Of a stretch of 59,930 nt of DNA, positions 16,184-56,668 are shown in pieces. Location of the stretch: assembly GCF_964213995.1 (NCBI RefSeq), contig NW_027590468.1, forward strand, positions 190,071 through 250,000, written 5' to 3'. The DNA comes from Mustelus asterias. Its lineage: Eukaryota. The position numbers and the translations under genes were made by a program. Position 1 is the stretch's first letter; the number at the start of each line of letters is the position of its first letter. The notes beneath the pieces are model-generated. The model was given only the letters and a program-made list of their open reading frames with translations, did not search any database and was not told where the DNA came from.

Positions 16184-18645
16184 CATGTGTCCCTCCATTC
16201 ACACAACAAGAACTATTCAGTCTGCACAGCAGCTTCAGTCTCATTCCCCCAGTTTGTTTTCCACCTTTTATCACTCCAATTCTTCTCCCACATACTTCAC
16301 ATCCTAACATTACAATACAAACTTGATAATCTCTCCAATTTGACATTTGTTCAGGGGTACAGACAGCAGATAAATTATCAATTACACTCCCAACCTGGGC
16401 TATGGTGATACATTTACACATGATCTCATTTCACAATAAAACCCACACACCGGTTTTAAGTTTGCTTCCGTTATTGCTGTTGTGCCCCGCAGGTTGATTA
16501 AAGTGACATTGACATCAACACTTTATGGTCTCTGTCTCTCTCTGCGTTNNNNNNNNNNNNNNNNNNNNNNNNNNNNNNNNNNNNNNNNNNNNNNNNNNNN
16601 NNNNNNNNNNNNNNNNNNNNNNNNNNNNNNNNNNNNNNNNNNNNNNNNNNNNNNNNNNNNNNNNNNNNNNNNNNNNNNNNNNNNNNNNNNNNNNNNNNNN
16701 NNNNNNNNNNNNNNNNNNNNNNNNNNNNNNNNNNNATGTTTTTAGTTTTATTTTATTTGATTTATTATTGTCACATGTATTAGTATACAAAGAAAAGTAT
16801 CGTTTCTTGCGCGCTATACAGAGAAAGCATACATTTCATAGAGAACAGTAAGAAGTCTCACAACGCCAGTTTCAAGTCGAACATGTTTATTTGGAATCAC
16901 GAGCTTTCGGAGCGCTGCTCCTTCATTAGGTGAGTGGAGAGGTAGGTTTTACAAACACAGCATTACACGTACATGGAGAAGGAAAGGAGCGAGTGCAGAA
17001 TGTAATGATACAGTCATAGCTAGGATGGAGAGAAATTTCAATTTAATTAAAACATTGTTATAGAGTTCAAAAGAGTTAGAATATCGTTTTAAAAGCATAG
17101 ACCAAGAGTAAAAGATAGCATTAGAGAGATGATGGGCACAGCTTGCAACAAGGTCCGACGCCATCTTGATTTTTTTGGTTTGTCTCTGTGTTTATCTGAG
17201 GGTGTGTGTGTGTGTGTTTGTTGTCTGAGTGTTTATGTCTATGTCTCTGTGTGTGCGACTTTGCTTGTGTCTATTTGTCTGCAATCGTGTGACTGTTTCT
17301 GCCTGAGGCTGTGTGTGTGTGGGTGTGTGCCTGTGTATGTTTGCTTGTCTGGTCATGTGTGTATATGTGTGTGTGTGTTATGCTGAAAGTGTGTGTCTGT
17401 GAGTTTGCGAGTTTGCCTATGTTGTTTGACTGAGATCATGTGTGTGCCCATATTTGACTGTGTGCATGTGTTGCTGTGTGCGTGACTGTGTTTGCCTGAG
17501 TGTTTGTGTGTGTGTGTTTGTGCGTGTGTGTTTTTCTGTGATTGTATGTATGTCTGAGTGTTTGACTGAGACTTGTGTCTAAATGTGTGTGTTTTGTCTG
17601 AGAGTTTGTGCTCATCTGTGTGCTTGCATCAGAGTGAATTTGTATGCATATGCGTGTTCGTTTGATAGGACATCTGTGTGTGGGTCTGTTTCTGTATGTT
17701 TGTCAGCGTGTGTGTGTGTGTCTGTGTGCATGCATGTCTGAGAGCATATGTTTTCTTTGTGTGTTTGTCTGAGTTTTTCTCTCTATATGTCTATGTTCAC
17801 GAGTTTGCTTGTGTGTTTGCCTGAGTGTGTGCTTATGACTGTGTGTTTGTCTGTGAGTGCATGTGTATGCCTGTGTTTTTCTGAGAGTGTGTGTCTGTGT
17901 GTTTGCAAGATTTCCTGTGTCTGTTCGTCTGAGAAATGTGTGCCTGTATTTGCCTGACTGTGTTTGCGTGTGTGTTTGTCTGTATTTGTCTGAATGCGTG
18001 TGTGTGTTTGTGTCTGTGTGGTTGTCTGTATGTGTGTGTGTGCTTGTCTGACAGCCTGTCTGTGTGTCAGAAAGAGAGATAAAGTATGGGTGCGTGTGTG
18101 TGTGTGTGTCTGAGCGTGTATATCCATGTATGTGCCTATGCGTGCGAGTTTGCCTGTATCGGTTTTTCTGAGATCCTGTGTGTGTGCGTGCTCGTGACTG
18201 TTTGTTTGTCTGTGTGTGTGTTTGCGTGTGTGTTTTTCAGAGGTGCATTTGGCTGTGTGTGTGTATGTGTTTGCGAGTTTGCTTCTCTCTGCTTGTTTCA
18301 GAACTTGTGTGTTGGTCTGAATGTGCGTGTGTGTATGTTTGGGTATGTGAGTTGGTCTCGGATTGTGTGTGTGTGAACATTTAAAATATAAATGGATGAT
18401 AGAAAAGCTACAGCACAAACAGGCCCTTCGGCCCACAAGTTGCGCCAAACATGTCCCTACCTACTAGGCTTACCTATAACCCTCTATCTTACTAACTTCC
18501 ATGAACATATCCAAAAGTGTCTTAAAAGAACCTATAGAATCCGCCTCCACCACCACTACCGGCAGCCGATTCCACGCACCCACCACCCTCTGAGTGAAAA
18601 ACTTACTCCGAACATCTCCTCTGTACCTACTCCCCAGCACCCTAA
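16184..18645 (+). repeat. Left arm of ~2.5 kb inverted segmental repeat (includes 187-N gap and TG-rich degenerate satellite)
   Basis: Near-identical reverse complement at 53903-56668; ORF translations 17129..17386(+) and 55182..55439(-) differ by one residue. Confidence 0.92.
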
Positions 18646-19480
18646 TCTCAAACCATCAAGTCCTGGTAGCATCCTAGTAAATCTTTTCTGCACTCTTTCT
18701 AGTTTAATAATATCCTTTCTATAATAGTTTGACAAGAACTGTACACAGTATTCCAAATGTGGCCTTACCAATGTCTTGTAGAACTTCAACAAGACGTCCC
18801 AACTCCTGTATTCAATGTTCTCACCGATGAAACCAAGCATGCCGAATGCCTTCTTCACCACTCTGTCCACCTGAGACTCCACTTTCAAGGAGCTATGAAC
18901 CTGTACCCTTGGATCTTTTTGTTCTATAGCTCTCCATAACACCCTCCCATTAAATGAGTAAGTCCTGTTCTGGTTCGATCGACGAAAATGGATCACTTCG
19001 CATTCATCTAAATAAAACTCCATCTTCCATTCACCAGCCCACTGGCCCAATTGATTAAGATCCCATTGATTGCAATCCTTGATAACCTTCTTCACTGTCC
19101 ACTATGCCACCAATCTTGGTGTCATCTGCAAACTTACTAACCACGCCTCCTAAATTCTCATCCAAATCATTAATATAAATGACAAATAACAGTGGACCCA
19201 GCACTCATTCCCGGAGGCACACTGCTGGCCATAGGCCTCTAGTTTGAAAGACAACCCTCTACAACCACCCTCTGTCTTCTGTCATCAAGCCAATTTTGTA
19301 TCCATTTAGCAACCTCAACCTGGATCCCGTGAGAGTGTTTCCAGCTTCTGCTCCAACCGAACCATGCGGTCTGTGAGGAGCTGCAGCTGGTCACACATCC
19401 CGCAAACATAGCCGCCAGGGACACTAGAAAGTTCGCTGATCTCCCACATCTTGCAGGAGGAACATATCACGGCCCTAACT
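18400..19480 (-). mobile_element. CR1-type LINE fragments (RT and ORF1-like remnants)
   Basis: ORF 18556..19095 contains [14 protein letters not shown] and [25 protein letters not shown] upstream. Confidence 0.85.
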
Positions 19481-54170: not shown

Positions 54171-56668
54171 TTCACACACACACAATCCGAGACCAACTCA
54201 CATACCCAAACATACACACGCGCACATTCAGACAAACACACAAGTTCTGAAACAAGCAGACAGAAGCAAACTCGCAAACACACACACACACAGCCAAATG
54301 CACCTCTGAAAAACACACACGCACACACACACACACACACAGACAAACAAAAAGTCACGAGCATGCACACACACAGGATCTCAGAAAAACCGATACAGGC
54401 AAACTCGCACGCATAGGCACATACATGGATATACACGCTCAGACACACACACACACACACACAGACACACAGACACACACATACTTTCTCTCTCTTTCTG
54501 ACACACAGACAGGCTGTCAGACAAGAACACACACATACAGACAACCACACAGACACAAACACACACACGCATTCAGACAAGTACAGACAAACACACACGC
54601 AAACACAGTCAGGCAAATACAGGCACACATTTCTCAGACGAACAGACACAGGAAATCTTGCAAACACACAGACACACACTCTCAGAAAAACACAGGCATA
54701 CACATGCACTCACAGACAAACACACAGTCACAAGCACACACTCAGACAAACACACACAAGCAAACTCGTGAACATAGACATATAGAGAGAAAAACTCAGA
54801 CAAACACACAAAGAAAATATATGCTCTCAGACATGCATGCACACAGACAGACACACACACACACACGCTGACAAACATACAGAAACAGACCCACACACAG
54901 ATGTCCTATCAAACGAACACGCATATGCATACAAATTCACTCTGATGCAAGCACACAGATAAGCACAAACTCTCAGACAAAACACACACATTTAGACACA
55001 AGTCTCAGTCAAACATTCAGACATACATACAATCACAGAAAAACACACACGCACAAACACACACACAAACACTCAGGCAAACACAGTCACGCACACAGCA
55101 ACACATGCACACAGTCAAACGTTGGCACACACATGATCTCAAACAACATAGGCAAACTCGCAAACACACAGACACACACTTTCAGCATAACACACACACA
55201 TATATACACACATGACCAGACAAGCAAACATACACAGGCACACACCCACACACACACAGCCTCAGGCAGAAACAGTCACACGATTGCAGACAAATAGACA
55301 CAAGCAAAGTCGCACACACAGAGACATAGACATAAACACTCAGACAACAAACACACACACACACACCCTCAGATAAACACAGAGACAAACCAAAAAAATC
55401 AAGATGGCGTCGGACCTTGTTGCAAGCTGTGCCCATCATCTCTCTAATGCTATCTTTTACTCTTGGTCTATGCTTTTAAAACGATATTCCAACTCTTTTG
55501 AACTCTATAACAATGTTTTAATTAAATTGATCTTTCTCTACATCCTAGCTATGACTGTGCACTCCTAGCTATGAGTGCACTTATGCACTCGCTCCTTTCT
55601 TTCTCCATGTACGTGTAATGCTGTGTTTGTAAAACCTACCTCTCCACTCACCTAATGAAGGAGCAGCGCTCCGAAAGCTCGTGATTCCAAAGAAACATGT
55701 TCGACTTGAAACTGGCGTTGTGAGACTTCTTACTGTTCTCTATGAAATGTATGCTTTCTCTGTATAGCGCGCAAGAAACAATACTTTTCTTTGTATACTA
55801 ATACATGTGACAATAATAAATCAAATAAAATAAAACCAAAAACATATACTTTCAGAAGAACGCACACACGCACACACACACACACACACACACAGCCACA
55901 CACACACACACAGCCACACACACACACACACACACTATTACGGGCAGTCTCACAAACGCAGAGAGAGACAGAGACCATAAAGTGTTGATGTCAATTTCAC
56001 TTTAATCAACCTGCGGGGCACAACAGCAATAACGGAAGCAAACTTAAAACCGGTGTGTGGGTTTTATTGTGAAATGAGATCATGTGTAAATGTATCACCA
56101 TAGCCCAGGTTGGGAGTGTAATTGATAATTTATCTGCTGTCTGTACCCCTGAACAAATGTCAAATTGGAGAGATTATCAAGTTTGTCATAGAAATCATAG
56201 GAACCCTCCAGTGCAGAAGAAGGCCATTCGGCCCATCGAGTCTGCACCGACCACAATCCCACCCAGGCCCTACCCCCACATATTTTACCCGCTAATCCCT
56301 CTAACCTACGCATCCCAGGACTCTAAGGGGCAATTCTTTTAACCTGGCCAATCAACCTAACCCGCACATCTTTGGACTGTGGGAGGAAACCGGAGCACCC
56401 GGAGGAAACCCACGCAGACACGAGGAGAATGTGCAAACTCCACACAGACAGTGACCCGAGCCGGGAATCGAACCCGGGACCCTGCAGCTGTGAAGCAGCA
56501 GTGCTAACCACTGTGCTACCGTGCCGCCAATACATTTGTATTGTAATGTTAGGATGTGAAGTATGTGGGAGAAGAATTGGAGTGATAAAGGGTGGAAAAC
56601 AAACTGGGGGAATGAGACTGAAGCTGCTGTGCAGACTGAATAGTTCTTGTGTGAATGGAGGGACACAT
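53903..56668 (-). repeat. Right arm of inverted segmental repeat (with a private SINE insertion at ~56186-56534)
   Basis: Reverse complement of 16184-18645. Confidence 0.92.
56186..56530 (-). mobile_element. Full-length young HE1-type SINE
   Basis: GGCGGCACGGTAGCACAGTGGTTAGCACTGCTGCTTCACAGC head; absent at the equivalent position of the left repeat arm; short TTTGT duplication. Confidence 0.9.

Follow-up and report, generated by a model that had tools for sequence, protein, structure and literature searches.

The inverted repeat around an NAR-TCR gene of Mustelus asterias is the worn remnant of an old mirror-image duplication common to several copies of the shark TCR cluster, and it is likely not a working flip switch. 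We put at about 80% the probability that its arms remain as a stump from a once large inverted duplication, likely a passive relic, and that the D-less appearance of the unit reflects a separate germline V-to-D joint, likely made by RAG. The window, i.e. the whole stretch of 59,930 nucleotides analysed here, covers positions 190,071-250,000 (forward strand) of contig NW_027590468.1 of assembly GCF_964213995.1; the contig is coded C436 below.

A preliminary description had reported a near-identical inverted repeat of ∼2.5 kb with scattered substitutions, which self-BLAST and alignment bore out. In a global alignment from which an N run and its counterpart were excluded, the inverted arms are 97.8% identical across 2,260 gap-free columns (2,210 matches, 50 substitutions), with a longest perfect run of 288 bp. 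Self-BLAST pairs 16736-18645 with 55845-53904 (94.8%; 1,953 columns with gaps), 16302-16548 with 56202-55955 (97.6%), and 16179-16321 with 56674-56535 (96.5%). The largest of the 14 gaps is the SINE-like insert that had been noticed in the right arm only. The left arm consists of unique sequence, ∼1.2 kb of GT-rich simple repeat, and a LINE 3′ end. The opposed orientation reported for the elements at the inner ends was confirmed for these LINE 3′ pieces; we take them to be CR1, as had been proposed, and a Pfam search on their frame, which matches many dispersed copies within the window, returned no match in support. A third, partial arm copy forms a fold-back palindrome with part of the right arm (53195-53689 with 53879-54374; 94%, 466 matches, 28 substitutions), and ends ∼25 bp from the inner breakpoint of the left arm. 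On C436, 12 inverted pairs that reach at least 1 kb and 90% identity bracket the core, and the 2.5-kb pair is among them. A larger repeat among the features of Table 1 also brackets the core and carries three V exons in its left arm.

The core contains an NAR-TCR, J segments and a constant region, as initially described, and exons, recombination signal sequences (RSS) and arms could all be located in the bracketing arrangement (Table 1). The NAR V exon has a cysteine in the a-b loop and lacks the WYRK motif's canonical tryptophan, both defining features of NAR-TCR according to the available text of PMC1845163. Together with the leader, the IgNAR-like V, its own D and J, and a supporting V-delta that has a CDR1 cysteine and is leaderless (judged by its splice acceptor and NCBI models), this places the window unit with NAR-TCR. 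The RSS of the first domain are 12/23-compatible (V with a 22-spacer, D 12/12, J with a 22-spacer). Among the J-delta segments, RSS with an intact CAC were detected for the first and third only. The constant, connecting-peptide and transmembrane exons are open and have canonical splice sites. V sequences do lie outside both arms: on the left are five plus-strand exons, one of them broken (∼6975-7262), and a minus-strand relic, and on the right a minus-strand relic is the first of a block of V exons that face either way.

Table 1. Features of the window (window coordinates unless a contig is named).
Feature	Position	Strand	Remarks
Left arm of second, larger inverted repeat	344-8071	+	7.7 kb, 98.1%; partner at C436:288964-296705
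Upstream V-alpha/delta-type exons (n = 5)	2919-10522	+	Four with detected 23-RSS
V relic, left	near 12293-12560	-	
Left arm	16184-18645	+	Inverted copy of the flank downstream of the cluster, truncated (self-BLAST, alignment)
Inner junction of inverted duplication	18640-18660	+	Two LINE 3′ ends joined at 3-bp microhomology
NAR-TCR leader exon	19837-19879	+	
NAR V exon	20028-20316	+	22-spacer RSS at 20317
NAR D	20709-20725	+	12-RSS on each side
NAR J	21102-21153	+	22-spacer RSS, GT donor
Supporting V-delta fused to D-delta 3′ end	23345-23657	+	CDR1 Cys, open frame
D-delta's own 3′ 23-RSS	23658-23696	+	Now serves the fused V-D
Four J-delta	23955-29112	+	Starts at ∼23955, 25307, 26802, 29055
C-delta-type constant exon	36315-36626	+	Open, canonical splice sites
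Connecting peptide exon	39134-39190	+	
Transmembrane and tail exon	39605-39714	+	Open, canonical splice sites
Third partial arm copy	53195-53689	+	Self-BLAST, alignment
Right arm	53904-56668	-	Flank sequence at ancestral position behind the C exon
SINE-like insertion, 353 bp	56186-56535	-	Right arm only; flanking 5-bp duplication ACAAA
V relic, right	58474-58621	-	Start of downstream V-exon block, both orientations

The unit is one member of a family. Near-identical delta-type constant (C) and transmembrane (TM) exons occur 19 times in the assembly, and complete clusters share the order NAR V, D (12/12), NAR J, supporting V (23), further V and IgH-like V (23), D-delta (12/23), four to five J (12), C, and a block of V exons. 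The delta-type label is tentative and has indirect support from this organisation, with a 12/23 D, IgH-like V and the NAR cassette upstream of C in complete clusters; no named C-delta was among the matches, a representative search likewise added none, and a PDB search gave generic C1-set matches only. Shark relatives at 47-58% are modelled with IgH-like or NAR V. A distant TM type (68-72%, two copies) lies at least 17 kb downstream of closely spaced J segments, the placement expected for C-alpha; a look near the distant TM copy for the C-alpha primer motif of nurse shark found none.

The arms are not a unique pair; the arm sequence is multi-copy in the assembly. It occurs in antisense orientation 18-26 kb downstream of the C exon at 17 of the 19 delta-type C exons, and at the other two the contigs end before that position. 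Past 56668, the homology of the right arm to paralogous arms continues for at least 25 kb. An inverted upstream copy stands in front of NAR V at five loci (C436, C119, C96, C115 and C110), and the window shares the continuity from arm to core at the inner junction with the last four of these. The arms of C119 (498450-548163 and 590056-644666) span ∼50 kb, with 84-90% identity in the inner part and up to 99.2-99.5% elsewhere, exceeding 99% across ∼26 kb of the outer arms; those of C96 measure ∼13 kb (80-95%). The left arm of the window is 98.8-99.5% identical to C591 and ∼96-98% to the upstream arms on C119, C96, C115 and C110.

It is very improbable that a dispersed transposable element or composite repeat inserted twice and so brackets the core by chance, or that the arms form a composite transposon that moved it. 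The arm is multi-copy (at least 42 and at least 40 matches listed, with 40 candidates scored per search) and ∼60% of it is simple repeat plus LINE end, as such a reading would expect, but the spacing of close copies from C exons or NAR V is fixed, as is their orientation, the homology in paralogues continues for tens of kb beyond the apparent arm end, and the arm ends carry neither a terminal repeat nor a target duplication. No composite-transposon ends with target duplication were found at the outer borders, which are unrelated breakpoints. The flank homology speaks strongly against a transposon arm, and the recent transposition envisaged earlier is not supported for an arm that is shared by paralogues and has accumulated 50 substitutions and 14 indels. 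The shark rate in the available text of PMC10587355 is per generation and comes from a different shark order.

For the preferred reading, an old inverted duplication, the arrangement in paralogues outlines a likely course. In the ancestor of C436, C119, C96, C115 and C110, the flank behind C was copied in inverted orientation to just before NAR V, with a break in a LINE at microhomology; the paralogues show this step, and its mechanism was probably replication template switching. Within this subfamily, we infer which flank type is ancestral. Gene conversion or ectopic crossover would later have exchanged tracts among arms and between clusters, and the left arm of the window would afterwards have been cut back at 16184. 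Arm sequences fall into two groups in a tree (100/100 support), and identity along the core switches at ∼46.7-48.8 kb. The two arms of the window cluster together with support of 93/89, below the star threshold of the tool, and are united by five shared derived sites, against one that points the opposite way. The right arm had appeared in a pairwise table as a plain outgroup to all upstream arms; the tree and the site count do not bear this out. The five shared derived sites suggest that arm-to-arm exchange happened once, long ago.

The same arms had prompted the proposal that crossover between them could flip the 35-kb core, and so change which V segments join by deletion and which by inversion. 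A flip is possible in principle for arms that are inverted, 97.8% identical and share five derived sites; since the two arms appear to have recombined once, a past flip of the window locus may have occurred. The outer arms of C119 would be a much better substrate, and the second, 7.7-kb repeat (98.1%) also brackets the window core. An active or polymorphic cassette is nevertheless improbable. The long, near-perfect arms expected of one are absent: after last exchanging sequence the pair gained 14 indels, the SINE among them, and it has no perfect run above 288 bp. None of the five upstream arms in this one assembly is flipped or swapped, that is, of downstream type or hybrid over the stretches compared. 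The consequence would also be small: RAG can join segments either by deletion or by inversion, the V exons on the right lie in both orientations, and the flanks of C119 are mirror images. The NAR-TCR gene would remain intact after a flip because all its parts, from NAR V, D and J through V and J to C, lie inside the arms. The human Y palindrome P6 resembles the repeat in its inverted segmental duplication around a spacer, in its conversion tracts and in the expectation of rare inversion. In the available text of PMC3723533, arm identity exceeds 99.9% and conversion is frequent, yet inversion is rare (3 inversions in 378 chromosomes for P6). Compared with P6, the window arms are short (2.5 kb), truncated and in decay (97.8%), and arms of ∼50 kb are kept only in paralogue C119, whose gene of interest is in the spacer.

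The D-less look of the unit has another source. Contrary to the earlier statement, the unit is not wholly D-less: it holds an NAR D, and a delta D is fused to the supporting V. For comparison we used unjoined V from C115, C110, C173 and C71, and unjoined D from 12 loci. Unjoined V (C115, C110) ends in GCACAG followed by a perfect 23-RSS, and unjoined D ends in GTGGGAC followed by CACAGTA-23-ACAATAACC. The window joint, near 23646-23657, consists of V minus ∼1 base, TC, and TGGGAC, followed by the D RSS and the D-to-J1 interval. The RSS after it agrees with the 3′ RSS that follows D in unjoined clusters and not with that of V; both facing RSS and the intervening DNA are gone, and the ends are trimmed. 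In three unjoined clusters this V-to-D interval is 19-38 kb long and contains IgH-like V segments. Either N addition or the ancestral D itself may account for the two bases that separate V from D; in runs X5 and X7 there are contigs that start matching at 23649, which hints at the latter. It had also been suggested that the repeat may record the event that created the D-less unit. That link is ruled out, as D was lost by a V-to-D coding join, V and D are still separate in C115 although it has the upstream arm, and C850 has a different V-D join and no upstream arm.

The joint is in inherited DNA and not in a lymphocyte clone, since it is shared by three paralogues and by the public run X1. C119 and C96 carry the identical joint and differ by 0.8-1.2% downstream, and the nearest unjoined copy is 90% identical. 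In X1, a 231-bp contig (depth 69.9) bridges the joint with one difference, extending ∼31 letters to its left, the tool minimum; among the pieces listed, a bridging contig was seen in this one of eight runs compared. X1 is likely from another individual because at several sites close by it differs in its letters at full depth. Runs X3, X4 and X11 are without cover over parts of the D-J1 interval, and these holes carry no weight. Run X6, from another organism, has a complete in-frame V-D-J in one contig (depth 5.38), a joint not seen in X11, a second sample of the same organism without cover there. The 19 D 3′-RSS sites comprise 12 unjoined copies, six V-D joins with four different junctions, and one apparent D-D join. 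Apart from the window joint, each of the three remaining V-D joints occurs in a single copy, as does the D-D joint; these three V-D joints have unjoined twins at 99.9% identity and may be somatic. No upstream D matching the odd RSS spacer of C138 was found in C173, C71:7.07-7.17 Mb or C115.

Uncollapsed haplotypes, mis-joins or lymphocyte DNA are an unlikely source of the arms, of the additional C exons or of the V-D joint, although the assembly gives some cause for caution. Most clusters sit on contigs of 0.03-1.8 Mb, and the 19 D-J1 regions, several of which are 99.9-100% identical, collapse to 14 groups at 99.9%, 12 at 99.5%, nine at 99% and seven at 98%. C850 and C401 are identical downstream yet have different joints, that of C401 lying <900 bp from the contig start. 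C436 itself is pieced together from satellites and duplications and has a near-perfect internal duplicate (∼12 kb at 99.3-100%, repeated 123 kb upstream), parts of which may be mis-assembled. Against an artefact, the arms differ by 2.2% and a SINE, the arm-core junction recurs on five contigs that are 1-4% apart, three C exons lie on a single 20-Mb scaffold (C71), and the window joint is present in three diverged paralogues and in X1. The N run in the left arm, which had been read as a gap and a possible artefact, is no assembly gap; the genome sequence fetched for the same place holds no N.

The form of the joint makes the immune recombinase RAG, acting in an ancestral germ cell, its likely author. 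After the inverted duplication, germline recombination fused the supporting V with D-delta, the interval between them being lost, and the joined cluster was then copied to give C436, C119 and C96. A T cell is predicted to complete the supporting domain by a single VD-to-J join, and the cluster would serve mainly as NAR-TCR with limited diversity in this domain. NAR-TCR is, in the available text of PMC1845163, PMC5931798, PMC12227049 and PMC6795676, a doubly rearranging TCR-delta of cartilaginous fish, and these sources describe the shark TCR alpha/delta locus as a translocon. The window shares with it the IgNAR-like V with its own D and J, the leaderless supporting V, the J segments and the delta-type C, but its supporting V is fused to D-delta in the germline, so that full somatic V-D-J assembly of the second domain would be reduced to VD-to-J joining, and the unit belongs to a set of 19 mini-clusters that each bear a C. 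Shark Ig genes joined in the germline as VD, VDJ or VJ, by RAG according to the portion of PMC2193156 available, offer a similar form of joint: coding ends joined, facing RSS and intervening DNA removed, trimming, and joined and split copies side by side in clustered loci. They differ in that the window gene is a TCR and the join lies in the membrane-proximal supporting V. TCR-mu of marsupials and monotremes has three extracellular domains, as predicted for the window chain, and likewise a cluster organisation and a second V of restricted diversity. However, it arose independently, and its V-mu-j (pre-joined in marsupials; platypus has a D-less V-J) is fully joined and ascribed to retrotransposition in the available text of PMC7615758, whereas the window join is V-D only, keeps its RSS and its intron, and has yet to be joined somatically to J.

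Sharks are known to pre-join antibody genes in the germline; for T-cell receptors, records of this are rare. No paper on clustered or germline-joined shark TCR-delta was among those listed in our literature searches; an earlier description is possible in the primary shark TCR-delta papers, and several C-delta copies may be present in other sharks, possibly in table S1 of PMC12227049. We tentatively propose, as a broader reading that we hold to be less probable than its opposite, that this lineage rebuilt TCR-delta as antibody-like mini-clusters converging on TCR-mu, that germ-cell RAG repeatedly pre-joined the supporting V, that some clusters thereby became NAR-TCR-only with a fixed support domain, and that palindromes copy and homogenise V blocks. 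The idea of repeated pre-joining draws on the window V-D, up to three further independent V-D joins, and the V-D-J contig of X6. The switch idea is unsupported, and the inverted repeat matters mainly as a record of cluster copying and reshuffling; the interesting part is the germline-joined, TCR-mu-like cluster. Its joined and unjoined sister genes in one genome would allow a direct test of whether the supporting V needs junctional diversity, and of the access of RAG to TCR loci in germ cells.

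The window's gene has the NAR-TCR features described in the available part of PMC1845163, except that its second rearrangement is already half done: the supporting V, a leaderless V-delta, is fused to D-delta. The observed inverted repeat, its paralogues, the gene clusters and this joint are best fitted by a relic palindrome and a germline V-D joint within a multiplied TCR-delta cluster, a reading we hold at roughly 80%. A literature search whose reach stopped short of several main primary papers listed no account of clustered or pre-joined shark TCR-delta. Coordinates are collected in the table; C-numbers denote contigs of the same assembly, and C436 carries the window at 190071-250000.

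Coordinates of the window's arms and gene segments and of related features in the assembly
Feature	Sequence	Positions	Remark
Left arm	window	16184-18645	+ strand
Right arm	window	53904-56668	- strand
Third, partial arm copy	window	53195-53689	folds back onto inner end of right arm
89-bp direct repeat	window	14770-14950	89%; left of left arm
Supporting V	window	23345-23657	joint near 23646-23657
J1	window	from ~23955	
Interval omitted by X6 contig	window	23652-23959	
Second J, RSS heptamer	window	25300-25315	no CAC start
Fourth J, RSS heptamer	window	29045-29055	no CAC start
Site lacking ~4.8 kb	window	25766-25771	present in C119 (555789-560636) and C96, with further J segments
Second inverted repeat	window; C436	344-8071; 288964-296705	7.7 kb, 98.1%
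Direct duplicate	window; C436	46391-59930; 113197-138375	123 kb upstream
Palindrome	C119	498450-644666	42-kb NAR-TCR/J/C spacer inside; V blocks mirrored
Palindrome arms, ~50 kb	C119	498450-548163; 590056-644666	
Hybrid cluster	C115	1-90000	
Distant TM exon type	C71; C546	18410001-18432000; 242003	68-72%; tightly spaced J segments lie upstream of it

Unjoined supporting V genes terminate in a perfect 23-RSS, and unjoined D-delta terminates in GTGGGAC or GGTGGAGC, beyond which come an RSS of its own type and ~270 bp to J1. The window's joint consists of V minus ~1 base, TC, TGGGAC, the RSS of D and the D-to-J1 interval, and has an open reading frame. The V-to-D interval that the joint removed measures 18.7, 25.9 and 37.5 kb in three unjoined clusters and contains the IgH-like V. 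Twelve of 19 D sites are unjoined, six are V-D joined with four different junctions, and one is apparently D-D joined. The window's junction recurs identically in C119 and C96, which are 0.8-1.2% diverged, and its closest unjoined twin is no nearer than 90%; three single-copy V-D joints each have an unjoined twin at 99.9% and may be somatic. These three and the D-D case lie on C71 (at 11.02 Mb), C850, C401 and C138: the V-D joints have different junctions, one with a conventional V and a frameshift and another with a broken supporting-type V, and the apparent D-D joint, which may likewise be germline or somatic, directly follows an IgH-like V.

Among public sequencing runs aligned to the window, X1 has a 231-bp contig that spans the joint with one difference at a depth of 69.9, its left overlap being minimal; since X1 differs from the window, at full depth, at several sites close to the joint, it likely represents another individual. 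No contig bridging the joint was found among the pieces listed for the other seven runs. One contig of run X6 (another organism, coded C; depth 5.38) links the V-D end to J1, with V-D-J1 in frame by hand count, and continues into the intron; X11, a second sample of that organism, gave no confirmation, having no cover at this place. The form of the joint, together with the available part of PMC2193156, suggests that RAG acting in a germ cell made it.

The C exon, assigned to delta on indirect grounds, has 19 stop-free copies in the assembly at 82-100% identity, all 39 candidates having been scored, and the transmembrane (TM) exon has 19 at 97-100% plus two distant copies. Each of two arm probes gave more than 20 full-length matches at 85% or higher among the best 40 candidates scored. 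At 17 of the 19 C exons the arm lies antisense, 18-26 kb downstream, the place that the window's right arm also occupies; at the other two the contig ends before that position. The 19 copies may represent fewer real loci: their D-J1 regions collapse to 14, 12, 9 and 7 groups at 99.9, 99.5, 99 and 98%. Each of three whole clusters (C173, C71 at 7.1 Mb and C115) contains NAR V and NAR J, a supporting V, additional V and IgH-like V, a single D with 12/23 RSS, and four or five J followed by C; two of the three also gave a call for a 12/12 NAR D. Across the genome, cassettes that pair a NAR V with a supporting V number in the dozens, many with no C nearby, and there are at least 86 NAR V matches among the best 150 of 568 candidates scored. 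In the hybrid cluster on C115, the NAR V and the supporting V belong to the window's subfamily and the J-C part to the other (95-99% to C850). The distant TM exon type is a probable C-alpha and shares a scaffold with three delta clusters.

The inverted repeat itself, noted in the preliminary description, was recovered by self-BLAST as three pieces at 94.8-97.6%. Aligned without the N run and its counterpart, the arms agree at 2,210 positions and differ by 50 substitutions and 14 gaps; their longest perfect run is 288 bp. The SINE ascribed to the right arm alone was confirmed as the largest gap, a 353-bp SINE-like insert with a 5-bp target duplication. The left-arm N run is not the assembly gap it was taken for, since the genome has letters there. 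Each arm contains ~1.2 kb of GT-rich simple repeat and ~270 bp of LINE 3' end, presumably CR1; the LINE frame had no match in Pfam.

In C436, C119, C96, C115 and C110 the downstream flank recurs in inverted form ~3.3-3.5 kb before NAR V. All five share one inner junction, two LINE ends joined at a 3-bp microhomology; template switching probably produced this duplication. Arm identity in C119 climbs from 84-90% inside through 94% mid-arm to 99.2-99.5% further out, then drops to 96.8% at the far end; the arms of C96 span ~13 kb at 80-95%. The C119 palindrome is the best candidate for real flipping, or is partly a haplotype mis-join. Most of ~28 kb of right flank in the window is 93-98% identical to the left arm of C119, so position 16184 appears to be only a later cut of the window's left arm; C591 shares this cut and 15 kb leftward at 99.1%. 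V and D are still separate in C115 although its upstream arm is present, and C850 has a V-D joint with no upstream arm, which refutes the proposal that the repeat records the event that made the unit D-less: it is older than the joint and not its cause.

An arm tree separates two groups (support 100/100; 86-93% identity between them), one uniting the upstream arms and the right arm of the window, the other made up of the remaining clusters' downstream arms. The cores of C119 and C96 are 96-99% identical to the window until ~46.7 kb and of the other type beyond, the foreign tract in C119 being ~18 kb long. From these sequences we read the arm groups and the core switch as tract exchange between clusters, with a polarity that we infer; conversion may have generated the mosaic.

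That the core is an invertible or recently transposed cassette, as had been suggested, now seems improbable. The window's two arms do pair in the tree (93/89) and share five exclusive derived sites against one contrary site (private sites: 19 left; 32 right, four being alignment noise beside the SINE; other patterns: 68). This pairing and site count make a single old arm-to-arm exchange likely, but the arms have since diverged by 2.2%, and none of five upstream arms examined is of the downstream type. In the available part of PMC3723533, moreover, a far more perfect palindrome shows common conversion and rare inversion. On C436 the core is bracketed by 12 inverted pairs that are 1 kb or longer and 90% or more identical, the window's arms among them; the second inverted repeat, with three V exons and ~90 kb between its copies, also speaks for inversion and would be a better substrate than the arms. 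Since the NAR V-D-J-V-J-C gene lies wholly inside, a flip would move it together and leave it whole. The predicted swap from deletional to inversional joining would hold for outside V segments only; RAG carries out both, and V exons right of the core already lie in both orientations. The direct duplicate on C436 (99.3-100% over ~12 kb, thereafter 97-98%) is either a very recent duplication or an assembly duplicate.

Two different delta-type C regions labelled Heptranchias perlo (P0012, P0016), on contigs of equal length, hint that C-delta has been duplicated in species other than Mustelus asterias as well. The joint and the cluster layout, more than the repeat alone, carry the interest of the locus. 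The second and fourth J probably have RSSs that work poorly or not at all. The cluster is predicted to yield NAR-TCR chains whose supporting domain would require one join, to J1 or J3, the two J for which an intact CAC heptamer was found.
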